Assembly (NCBI GenBank): GCA_041665365.1
Contig: JBAYIY010000002.1
Coordinates: 66,178 to 130,177 of the forward strand
DNA: 64,000 nt
From: Patescibacteria group bacterium
Lineage (GTDB): Bacteria > Patescibacteriota > Patescibacteriia > UBA9570
Direction: 5' to 3'
Of the stretch, positions 48,395 to 50,386 are shown piece by piece. Within the stretch, counting starts at the first letter, position 1; the number at the start of each line of letters is the position of its first letter. Below the pieces are notes generated by a model. The model was not told the origin of the DNA. It made no database searches and saw nothing but the letters and a program-made list of their open reading frames with translations. Both the position numbers and the translations under genes were made by a program.

Positions 48395-50386
48395 CTAGTA
48401 TAGCATATCTTTAAATTGTGTCTCGTTTATAATTTTAACCCCTAATTGCTTGGCTTTGTCATACTTTGAACCTGGTTCGGTACCGGCTACAACAAAATCA
48501 GTTTTAGTGCTAACACTACTGGAGATTTTTCCACCATGATCTCTTATTACCTGTTTGATACCATCACGTGAATACCCTTGTAAAGTGCCTGTTACAACAA
48601 ACGTTTTATTTGTAAAGACGCGAAATTTCGCGTCTTTACCTGATGCTGGTTTTTGCAATGTGACATATTTCAATAATTCATTTAGATTATTTTGGTTTTT
48701 TTTATCATTAAAATATTCATAAATGCTTTGGGAAACAATAGTACCGATACCGGGAATCCCCTGTAGAGACGTTGCATGCAACGTCTCTACAGGGATCGTA
48801 TCGACCGGGATGGTTCCAAAATGATTCGCCAATATAACCGCCGTTTCCTCACCAACATGACGAATACCCAAAGCATATAAAAATCTGGCCAGGGGTACTG
48901 TTCGTTTCGCTTGAATCTCGCTGATTAAATTAACCGCCGATTTTTCTGCAAAGCGATCTAATGGTTCAACGTCACCAATGGTTAATGTAAACAGATCAGC
49001 AAAATTCTTCACTAAGCCAGCCGCAACTAATTGATCGATTATTTTTGGTCCTAAGCCCTCAATGTCAAATCCGCCCTTTGAGACAAAATGATATAAACGT
49101 TCACGCTCCTGAGCAAAACATTTTGGATTGGTGCAATAATACGCCACCTCCCCGTCTGTTCGCCCAACTTTAGCACCACAGGCCGGACACAGTTTTGGAA
49201 ACTGAAATGGCTGACTTTTTTTAGCGCGCAAATTTGGTAAGGTTTGAACTACTTCTGGGATAATATCACCCGCTTTTTGAATTATGACCGTGTCCCCCAC
49301 CCGCACATCTAAACGTTCAATCTCATCGGCATTATGTAAAGTAGCGCGCGACACAGTTGAACCAGCGACAAACACAGGGCGCAAATGTGCCACCGGAGTA
49401 AGTGCTCCGGTGCGGCCCACTTGCACCTGAATATCTTCCACAACAGTAGTGGCTTGTTCAGCTGGAAATTTATAAGCAATCGCTCCACGTGGTGCTTTTC
49501 CGACTACACCCAACTGTTTAAACACAGCTAACTGATCGATATTCACCACTATGCCATCAGTCCAGTACGGTAATTTATCCCGTTTTTTTATTATTTGACT
49601 ATGATATTTTTTTACCTGTTCTAAATTAGCACATAAAACATTATGCGGGTTAGATGGAAAACCAAATTTAACCAACGCCGCGTGCACATCCGAGTGTAAT
49701 TTTAAACCTAGATCAGTCACGCAATCATAGGCCATAAAAGATAACTTACGGCTGGCCGCAATAGTTGGATCGAGCTGCCTAATGCTGCCAGCTGACACAT
49801 TGCGTGGATTAGCAAATTTTTCCACACTGGTTTTATTGAGGTGTTCAAATTGTTGTTTCGTCATATACACTTCTCCGCGCACTTCTAACACCGCCGGAAA
49901 TTCCCCGTGTAATTTTAGTGGAATCGACTCGATGGTTTTCAAATTGGCAGTGACATCTTCACCGATTTTTCCATCTCCCCGCGTGGCTCCCTGTATAAAC
50001 ATACCATGCTCATAACGCAGATTCACGGCTAAGCCATCCATTTTAATTTCAGCATAATAACTAATGTCACCGGAGACTAATTTTTTTATTTTTATCTCCC
50101 AATCACTTAATTCTTCTATAGAAAAAACATCATTTAAAGATAACATCGCCTGACTATGAGTAACTTTTTTAAAGTCTGGTAGCGGCTGACCACCCACCCG
50201 TTGGCTGGGAGAATCTGGTGTTAGGTATTCCGGAAACTGTTGCTCTAATTGGGTTAATTCATGTTTTAAGGAATCCAAGGCTGCTTCAGACAGAGCTGGT
50301 TTATCCAACACATGATACAAATAGCGTTGCTGTTCAATCTCGTGTTTGAGTTGATTGATTCTTTGCTGAGCGGCGGTTTGGTTCAT
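48395..50386 (-). CDS. ligA: NAD-dependent DNA ligase
   Basis: Contains KxDG (EIKMDGLAV), OB and Zn finger (CPACGAKV...C) domains, HhH motifs and a C-terminal BRCT domain. Confidence 0.95.
48759..48794. repeat. Palindromic element P4 (GTAGAGACGT family) lying in-frame inside ligA
   Basis: CCCTGTAGAGACGTTGCA|TGCAACGTCTCTACAGGG is a perfect 36-nt palindrome. It is translated as [12 protein letters not shown] immediately before the IPGIG HhH motif. Confidence 0.85.

Follow-up and report, generated by a model that had tools for sequence, protein, structure and literature searches.

A perfect palindrome translated within ligA of a Patescibacteria bacterium is probably an in-frame copy of a double-foot REP element

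How does a long perfect palindrome come to be translated in the middle of a DNA ligase? The question is raised by a 64,000-nucleotide stretch of DNA from a Patescibacteria group bacterium (GenBank assembly GCA_041665365.1, contig JBAYIY010000002.1, positions 66,178 to 130,177; the whole stretch is referred to here as the window), in which ligA, the gene for NAD-dependent DNA ligase, contains a 36-nt perfect palindrome in frame. The comparisons described below indicate that this palindrome is probably an in-frame copy of a double-foot repetitive extragenic palindromic (REP) element, most likely neutral or selfish.

The ligA gene (positions 48395-50386, minus strand) encodes a protein of 663 residues that is 100% identical to P0001, named NAD-dependent DNA ligase LigA of a Patescibacteria metagenome-assembled genome (MAG). 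The Pfam domains of P0001 are ligase, OB, Zn, HhH (helix-hairpin-helix) and BRCT, and the closest relatives of this LigA carry the names Kerfeldbacteria or Patescibacteria. The palindrome, CCCTGTAGAGACGTTGCATGCAACGTCTCTACAGGG, is located at 48759-48794 on the same strand (to be referred to as site A). Its two arms of 18 nt each are perfectly complementary, it lies wholly within the open reading frame (ORF) of ligA, and the 12 residues that it encodes directly precede the sequence IPGIG. The initial annotation had described this arrangement, and reading of the sequence and its translation confirmed it. The 28-nt core, GTAGAGACGTTGCATGCAACGTCTCTAC, occupies 48763-48790 and has complementary CCCT and AGGG on its flanks. 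The RNA hairpin has a 17-bp stem, and the 116-nt mRNA context of the site has a folding energy of -46.6 kcal/mol (z = -5.9). No T/U run follows the hairpin, the downstream mRNA being GGGAUUCCCGGUAUCGG.

Next to the palindrome is a 15-nt near-copy (48797-48811, minus strand; 12 of 15 positions identical) of its left arm plus five flanking bases. In the mRNA the near-copy is directly 5' of the segment 48782-48796, so that ATCCCGGTCGATACG is followed by ATCCCTGTAGAGACG, and IPVDT by IPVET in the protein. In the orthologs the position of the near-copy is occupied by a helix, LEKLRDA, and the total length is unchanged. Judged from its sequence, the near-copy appears to stem from a local event, a copying or a conversion, in which native codons were replaced.

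The palindrome belongs to a family that is dispersed in the window. Perfect palindromes of 36 nt are expected by chance about 1e-6 times here (64000 x 4^-18), and the 10-mer GTAGAGACGT has 6 occurrences against 0.03 expected, a number reached by 0 of 100 shuffles. The earlier view that such a palindrome is unlikely to arise by chance is borne out by these figures. The exact occurrences of the 10-mer are all in inverted pairs, and single copies with one mismatch number 6 against 4.25 expected. Since half-sites on their own are no more frequent than expected by chance, the hairpin rather than the 10-mer is the unit. The core GTAGAGAC(G/A)T...A(C/T)GTCTCTAC is present as inverted pairs at five places, site A among them. 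The other four are the terminator-like copies that had been said to share a core with site A, and they do share it: those at 35366-35406 and 45228-45278 contain GTAGAGACGT, and those at 37667-37708 and 53685-53726 contain GTAGAGACAT. The foot GTAG and its mirror CTAC are found in site A and in all four other core copies, while the inner stem is variable yet self-complementary and the unit is 28-29 nt long. Altogether the window has seven copies of the family, five of them intergenic at the 3' ends of genes and two in ligA.

The second copy in ligA is a 28-nt perfect palindrome, GTAAAGACGCGAAATTTCGCGTCTTTAC, at 48612-48639 on the minus strand (to be referred to as site B). Here a G-to-A change in the foot is compensated by a C-to-T change (GTAA...TTAC). 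Site B encodes 10 residues in the linker between the HhH and BRCT domains, just before the BRCT domain, and it is read in the other open frame than site A. Only one of the three frames of the repeat unit contains a stop codon (TAG), which allows both copies to be read through; translation in the open frames yields V-E-T-x4-S-L-Q at site A or x-R/K-D-x4-V-S/F-T at site B. Among the perfect palindromes listed for the window with arms of at least 12 nt, sites A and B are the only ones located fully inside a gene.

The same unit is found in other phyla. A scan of one genome per species with the pattern GTAGAGACRT-N(0-16)-AYGTCTCTAC gave at least 120 loci, with 129 matches listed. The matches listed come from Cyanobacteria (many Nostocales), Bacteroidota (Bacteroidales, Saprospiraceae), Chloroflexota (Anaerolineae, Caldilineae), Acidobacteriota, Desulfuromonas and an Uhrbacteria MAG. 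Among them, the inner segment is 8-10 nt in all 129, all four inner pairs are formed in 101, and the exact 28-mer of ligA is the commonest variant (18 of 129). Because the inner segments are this short and mostly paired, the unit can be described as a hairpin of 28-29 nt with a constant outer and a covarying inner stem. A link to phages was considered, and 16 matches were found among 2.9 million viral contigs. A literature search with the sequence string returned primers and unrelated uses only.

These features are those of the double-foot REPs, which consist of a 5' GT[AG]G, a stem and a 3' C[TC]AC, and are associated with subclass 2.4 (Bertels group 4) of the tyrosine transposases linked to REPs (RAYTs) (Quentin et al. 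2018, PMC6006769). As in that survey, the units are 28-29 nt long with a 12-13 bp stem, a 3-4 nt loop and a GT[AG]G foot with its reverse complement at the 3' end, and they are spread over Cyanobacteria, Bacteroidetes and various scattered phyla. Table S1 of PMC6006769, which tabulates REPs in REPtrons, contains 25 GTAGAGAC strings, for example GTAGAGACGCAATGCATTGCGTCTCTAC (marked double foot = T) and GTAGAGACGCGAAATTTCGCGTCTCTC. The site B copy corresponds exactly to the inner part of GTAGAGACGCGAAATTTCGCGTCTCTC, and its own inner sequence, GACGCGAAATTTCGCGTC, matches a REP of the same table. Further, REPs are short hairpin palindromes (about 21-65 nt), and site A has a 28-nt core in a 36-nt palindrome; REPs are dispersed, mostly downstream of ORFs, and five of the seven copies in 64 kb are at gene 3' ends; REPs flank tnpA_REP (RAYT) genes, and the same type does so in Table S1 and at two of the loci described next.

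RAYT genes were sought by a six-frame motif scan (HUH...Y-x-x-NP) of the fetched DNA (1.4 Mb), which gave three RAYT-like ORFs, at loci L023, L036 and L127. The ORF in L023 (Bacteroidales, 2285-2935) has the motifs NHLH...YIKNNP. It starts 3 nt after GTAGAGACGTACAATCGTACGTCTCTAC and is flanked by GTAGAGACG palindromes at 2254-2281 and 2971-3030, the downstream one being a 60-nt perfect palindrome that contains TAGAGACGCACGG...CCGTGCGTCTCTA. In L036 (Dulcicalothrix desertica, a cyanobacterium), a 255-aa Y1_Tnp ORF ends 116 nt from GTAGAGACGTTACATGTAACGTCTCTAC. With the Pfam Y1_Tnp model (cutoff 23), L036 (60 bits) and L127 (43 bits) are above the cutoff and L023 (17.9) is below it. With NCBIfam, REP_Tyr_transpos is the best match of each of the three, and in every case the score falls short of the equivalog cutoff of 80. 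The genes between close palindrome pairs in other phyla were also considered as RAYTs and rejected, being ordinary genes for MeaB, an ABC ATPase, a desaturase, RecJ and a CCA-adding enzyme. On the sequence, the published tables and the adjacency to RAYT-like genes in other phyla, the site A palindrome is assigned to the double-foot REPs.

The third RAYT-like ORF is in a Patescibacteria contig, L127, where it encodes 222 aa (3117-3785) directly after ligA (871-3039). It is flanked by another palindrome family (3058-3102 and 3789-3817), with an in-frame copy at 3263-3283, and the segment 3058-3817 is predicted to be a complete REPtron adjoining ligA. Homologues of the L127 protein number 371 at E <= 1e-5; many bear the names of Patescibacteria lineages, and JGI (Joint Genome Institute) labels some of them 'REP element-mobilizing transposase RayT'. 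The Patescibacteria RAYT homologues that were fetched have variable inserts, none with the VET/RD signature of the GTAGAGAC family, and this RAYT subfamily is for that reason not tied to the GTAGAGAC REP.

The initial annotation had proposed to look for an indel of 4-12 residues at site A, and such an indel is seen in an alignment of 66 LigA homologues with 57-70% identity (alignment A1). The canonical sequence at site A is FGSLE-KLRxA-SL-EEL-xxIPDIG, with 19 residues after FGS. Seven of the 66 homologues are longer here, all among the closest relatives: the query, P0003 and P0006 by 4 residues, P0005 by 5, P0008 by 6, P0002 by 7 and P0010 by 12. The palindrome-free orthologs are 4-12 residues shorter at exactly this position, and none of those in the alignment encodes the identical peptide. 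In a neighbour-joining tree built without the insertion columns, sister sequences differ at site A: P0002 has 7 extra residues and P0004 none, while P0006 has 4 extra residues and P0018 has 2 fewer than the canonical number. The translated signature of site B is present in 19 of the 66 homologues, and that of site A in 7.

The site A DNA of nine orthologs shows the palindrome in various states. It is perfect in the query, in P0006 (TGTAGAGACGTTGCAGGCAACGTCTCTACA) and in P0002 (CGTAGGGACACGCCATGGCGTGTCCCTACG), where every arm change is compensated. P0010 has a single mismatch, in a clean insertion of 12 residues that carries the same foot. The palindrome is decayed in P0003 (GTAAAGACGCATGGCAATACGTCTTTAC), P0005 and P0008, and no trace of it is present in the DNA of P0004, P0018 and L124. 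Site B is perfect in P0010 (40 nt) and L124 (36 nt) and has one mismatch in P0006. Between the query and P0006, the third codon positions are 43% identical over the gene and identical residues have the same codon in 47% of cases, while the 28-nt core is identical at 27 of 28 positions, a single loop base being different. As the core is far more identical than the third codon positions, it is the element rather than the peptide that is conserved or repeatedly re-acquired. A different hairpin, AGCTAGG-CAAGA-CCTAGCT, occupies the site A position in a distant LigA clade (L130 3466-3494, L155 4627-4651 and L157 2496-2520). It encodes SARQDLAE at canonical protein length, with one compensated arm change between L130 and L155.

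The placement of the two copies in the protein was examined with an AlphaFold2 model of LigA (mean pLDDT, the predicted local distance difference test, of 88.4). The ten-residue blocks of lowest confidence are 531-540 (56), 581-590 (60) and 521-530 (67); the first two hold the palindrome-encoded segments, and the third adjoins site A. Residues 524-537 are coil, with pLDDT below 50 at 530-532 (left arm and loop of site A), and residues 538-542, the ATSLQ end of site A, are modelled as a short helix preceding the IPGIG hairpin. Linker coil makes up residues 581-592 (mean pLDDT of 60 for site B, 581-590). According to the model, the right arm of site A would stand where native LigA has the first helix of its last HhH motif (EELxx, or TSLE in P0017 and P0020), with the left arm and loop as a disordered bulge. 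Both copies are predicted to be at spots where additional residues are tolerated, site A in an interhelical loop of the HhH domain and site B in the linker between the HhH and BRCT domains. The earlier suggestion that the element may have been co-opted into the HhH region holds in part: ATSLQ aligns with the native helix before GIG and is modelled as a helix, but the left arm and loop are low-confidence coil. In sister lineages the insert is either lacking or present as decayed copies, which speaks for an insert that is tolerated and not needed. The signatures V-E-T-x4-S-L-Q and R-D-x4-V-S-T mark repeat-derived segments that can mislead alignments, domain boundaries and structure models.

The in-frame position of REPs is in itself known. 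Insertions that preserve the reading frame are described for the double-foot REPs, mainly inside the transposase gene itself, unlike the copies here in ligA, and Patescibacteria are not mentioned among the hosts (0 mentions in PMC6006769). Intragenic GTAG/CGTC REPs resemble the present family in being mostly downstream of ORFs, with a minority inside genes and translated, and many of the intragenic GTAG REPs are in replication and repair genes (Di Nocera et al. 2013, PMC3733652). For example, the ATP-dependent DNA ligase of Opitutus terrae carries GTAG/CGTC-type REPs, and RPE-4 and RPE-6, two of the Rickettsia palindromic elements (RPE), correspond to CGTC REPs (PMC3733652). In those REPs, however, the GTAG tag is unpaired at one end, while here it pairs with CTAC. 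Neither the GTAGAGAC family nor NAD-dependent LigA occurs in the text and supplements of PMC3733652 as far as these were accessible, and nothing is said there of lineages repeatedly carrying REPs at the same two codon positions.

The initial annotation had compared the palindrome to the in-frame insertions of Rickettsia. RPEs are palindromic repeats that are found in frame in genes, where they are tolerated in surface-exposed segments, and also between genes. The classical RPE-1 is about 100-150 bp long and encodes 30-50 aa; to our knowledge it is restricted to Rickettsia, and no transposase has been assigned to it. The comparison holds for behaviour only. The family copies and the insertion relative to orthologs support a palindrome that belongs to a dispersed family and lies in ligA without disturbing the reading frame, but there is no common sequence or foot motif between RPE-1 and site A. 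With a unit of 28-36 nt, a GTAG foot and a Patescibacteria host, the element is not an RPE, and its closest family is the GTAG double-foot REPs of RAYTs (PMC6006769).

Other classes of repeats were considered and rejected. The intergenic copies are like intrinsic (Rho-independent) terminators, being GC-rich hairpins at gene ends, several with T-runs. Unlike in ordinary terminators, the stem sequence is common across loci and phyla, and the ligA copies have no T/U tract, must be read through, and are missing from the list of a terminator-like scan of the window. A miniature inverted-repeat transposable element (MITE; 70-300 bp, with terminal inverted repeats and a target-site duplication) does not fit a 28-nt hairpin with inverted flanks and no direct repeat. 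A DNA uptake sequence (of the DUS/USS type) is not indicated, as there is no excess of single copies (the one-mismatch counts above). CRISPR repeats form tandem arrays with spacers, and the copies here are solitary and kilobases apart.

Palindromes of unrelated sequence are also found in the ligA genes of other Patescibacteria. Perfect palindromes with arms of 10 bp or more and a GC content of at least 30% were counted in a sample of 40 non-redundant metagenomic loci, the sole criterion for their choice being that they encode a LigA relative. There are 12 in 71 kb of ligA (0.168 per kb), 2 in 95 kb of other long ORFs (0.021 per kb) and 15 in 45 kb of intergenic DNA (0.334 per kb); as some events are common to related loci, the independent events are fewer than those counted. 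The palindromes in ligA belong to several unrelated families. Among 15 that were mapped in other ligA genes, 13 are at insertions of 9 to 27 residues relative to the query, and all 15 are at a predicted coil or coil-helix boundary. The sites hit are, in query residues, about 105, 188-231 and 407-413 (the last in six lineages), in addition to sites A and B.

In other phyla, most of the apparent intragenic GTAGAGAC copies fall at the very 5' end of ORFs called from stop to stop, and for this reason are probably upstream of the true start. The truly internal copies are few; they are in multidomain proteins (one HlyD-like, one a double ABC ATPase and one of the TPR-CHAT type), and none is in a repair gene.

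The following mechanism can be proposed. REP copies would be generated by a RAYT, an HUH/Y1 transposase, acting on single-stranded hairpins, as has been proposed for REPs in general; for the ligA copy we infer this route, the window having yielded no RAYT. The arms may stay perfect through hairpin-templated repair (template switching), and the same correction may extend the complementarity by 4-11 bp into the flanks. Selection would then leave only in-frame copies at permissive sites, and the ligA copies would be neutral passengers rather than part of the ligase function.

Several observations weigh against this account. Palindromes are 8-fold denser in ligA than in the neighbouring ORFs of the 40 loci (Fisher p = 0.0017), and both intragenic copies of the window are in one gene; pure neutrality predicts no such concentration unless LigA is unusually permissive. 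The net gain at site A is 4 residues for a unit of 28-36 nt, which calls for trimming after insertion or an overlay on native codons. The motif scan and tblastn with an approximate E. coli RayT query revealed no RAYT gene in the 64 kb of the window or in some 14 kb of additional flank from sibling assemblies; the tblastn result, with no match at any locus, is a weak negative. Finally, the RAYT-like proteins of L023 and L036 share little beyond the catalytic motifs (BLASTP E = 0.12). A single cognate enzyme lineage is consequently not an obvious explanation of the cross-phylum stem, and one recently transferred transposase does not explain the constant 10-bp foot across phyla.

The density of palindromes in ligA could instead mean that the hairpins are kept there by selection as cis-acting RNA or DNA signals, with translatability only a constraint; interdomain translational pausing, a site for RNase processing or stability, and a supercoiling- or damage-sensitive cruciform that tunes the ligase level are candidate roles. 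The very stable hairpin of site A would suit such roles, as would the recurrence at the same two codon positions in lineages of 57-70% identity (19 and 7 of 66 homologues for sites B and A), the excess of 0.168 over 0.021 palindromes per kb, and the presence of REPs in replication and repair genes in the published survey (PMC3733652). On the other hand, the unit is mostly intergenic and flanks ordinary genes, its presence in ligA is patchy even between sisters, with decayed and empty sites, and in other lineages different ligA loops are filled by unrelated families. Downstream of the ligA copies there is no U-tract, and the truly intragenic copies of other phyla are not in repair genes. The identity of the core is far above that of synonymous sites elsewhere in ligA, and arm changes are compensated in several perfect copies (P0002 GTAGGGACACGCCATGGCGTGTCCCTAC compared with the query, the GTAAAGAC/GTCTTTAC variants, and L130 compared with L155), as expected of a selected signal. 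Template-switch correction of quasipalindromes is, however, an established mutational mechanism, and compensated arms can arise through it without selection. We regard a cis-acting role as unlikely, if worth keeping in view.

Template switching might also have made the palindrome in place, by inverting native T-S-L-Q codons, in which case the likeness to the family would be secondary. The right arm does align with native residues (TSLE in P0017 and P0020, at canonical length), the net gain of 4 residues, or 12 nt, is about one arm, and the near-duplicate of the left arm adjoins the palindrome. Complementarity in this genome also always extends 4-11 bp past the core into locus-specific flanks, in all five core copies of the window compared with 10 of the 129 matches listed elsewhere. 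An origin in place is nevertheless quite improbable, as it would require native codons to match ACGTCTCTAC by chance, when the 28-mer is identical to the commonest variant, among the matches listed, of a family present in at least six phyla, and the 10-bp foot is common to other copies of the window. P0010, with its clean insertion of 12 residues carrying the same foot, also indicates an insertion, and template switching is more plausible after this step, perfecting and extending the arms. Chance similarity, or an assembly or sequencing error of the kind that the initial annotation had named as a refutation, is practically negligible. The contig is a metagenome assembly and the exact LigA protein is on no second contig of the contig index, but the family statistics exclude chance, and the independent assemblies of orthologs have related perfect palindromes at the same codon positions with the frame kept, which makes an artefact unlikely.

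The double-foot REP thus remains the preferred source of the site A palindrome, and the simplest reading of the density in ligA is a flux of insertions filtered by tolerance, the beads-on-a-string LigA being unusually permissive. A more speculative possibility, which we consider rather unlikely, is that ligA in Patescibacteria is a preferred host of translated REP-type hairpins and that this preference is perhaps functional. It is suggested by at least five loop sites hit by unrelated families, the 8-fold density and the RAYT directly after ligA in one lineage. If true, ligase expression or activity could be coupled to the hairpin cleaving-rejoining cycle of REPs and RAYTs, or the hairpin DNA in ligA could sense replication or supercoiling stress.

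Patescibacteria as a host group, the recurrent loop positions in ligA and the nesting of the core in longer locus-specific palindromes appear to be unreported in the literature searched, where no paper linking Patescibacteria with in-frame palindromes was found. In-frame REPs in genes, repair genes included, are already known (PMC3733652), and the understanding of how REPs work is unchanged. The observations indicate that the small genomes of Patescibacteria (the candidate phyla radiation, CPR) carry REP-type hairpin repeats and RAYT-like genes, and that an essential protein of replication and repair has these repeats built in at recurring loop positions, with gain, decay and loss visible. The ligA sites can therefore serve as a natural series for the rate of element turnover and for separating selection from template-switch repair of hairpins.

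The five intergenic copies of the window are all at gene 3' ends and are the top matches of the terminator-like scan, several with A-runs and T-runs. The copy at 35366-35406, AATTAC-GTAGAGACGTGCCGCCGGCACGTCTCTAC-GTAATT, is terminator-like and 4 nt downstream of the stop of a 721-aa ORF (35410-37575). That at 37667-37708, AAAACAA-GTAGAGACATGCCATGGCATGTCTCTAC-TTGTTTT, is between this ORF and ORF 37745-38191, and is terminator-like with an A-run and a T-run. The copy at 45228-45278, the top match of the scan, is a 51-nt perfect palindrome with the core GTAGAGACGTGCCGGCGGCACGTCTCTAC that starts at the stop codon of ORF 45272-45844; its T-run is on the opposite (+) strand of 45232-45274. The terminator-like copy at 53685-53726, AAAACCA-GTAGAGACATGCCATGGCATGTCTCTAC-TGGTTTT, is downstream of ORF 53744-54271. 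It also overlaps the mechanical ATG of ORF 52874-53701, the true start of which is probably further downstream; otherwise the hairpin would be at the 5' end of the message. The last copy, at 54448-54476, is a diverged relative, ACAGAGACGCCCCACCGGGACGTCTCTGT, downstream of ORF 54504-55046, and its inner part resembles the copies in the ortholog locus L121. A hairpin followed by a U-tract on the strand of the adjacent ending gene is found at 37708-37667 and 54476-54448. Rfam at gathering thresholds gives two tRNAs only in the window, and nothing at the palindromes.

The region upstream of ligA (about 50383-63958) has conserved synteny with the Patescibacteria loci L121, L123 and L190-L194. In all of these a type IV pilus-like cluster (PilM, two T2SSE ATPases, T2SSF, a prepilin peptidase and N_methyl pseudopilins) is followed by ligA-gatC-gatA-response regulator-ndk.

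Unrelated long perfect palindromes are translated in the ligA genes of the metagenomic loci L126, L133-L138, L156, L162 and L163, for example the 41-nt AAGGGATCAGGTACCTTTAAATTAAAGGTACCTGATCCCTT and the CCCTCTCCCAGAGGGAGAGGG type. Upstream of ligA in L146, two perfect palindromes of 56-58 nt (117-174 and 862-917) have the common core CCTTACACTTACTTCACGTACGTGAAGTAAGTGTAAGG, which is another high-copy hairpin family. In the window, a 69-nt near-perfect palindrome at 20470-20538 (34-nt arms, 91% complementary), unlike the GTAGAGAC family in sequence, separates two convergent ORFs, 19871-20476 (+) and 20542-20853 (-), and probably acts as a terminator in both directions. Two other intergenic inverted repeats, also of other sequences, are at 41310-41370 (CCCCCTTGCAGGGGG..., with a 19-nt spacer) and 54354-54405 (TGAAAACGCTGAAGAAGA..., with a 16-nt spacer).

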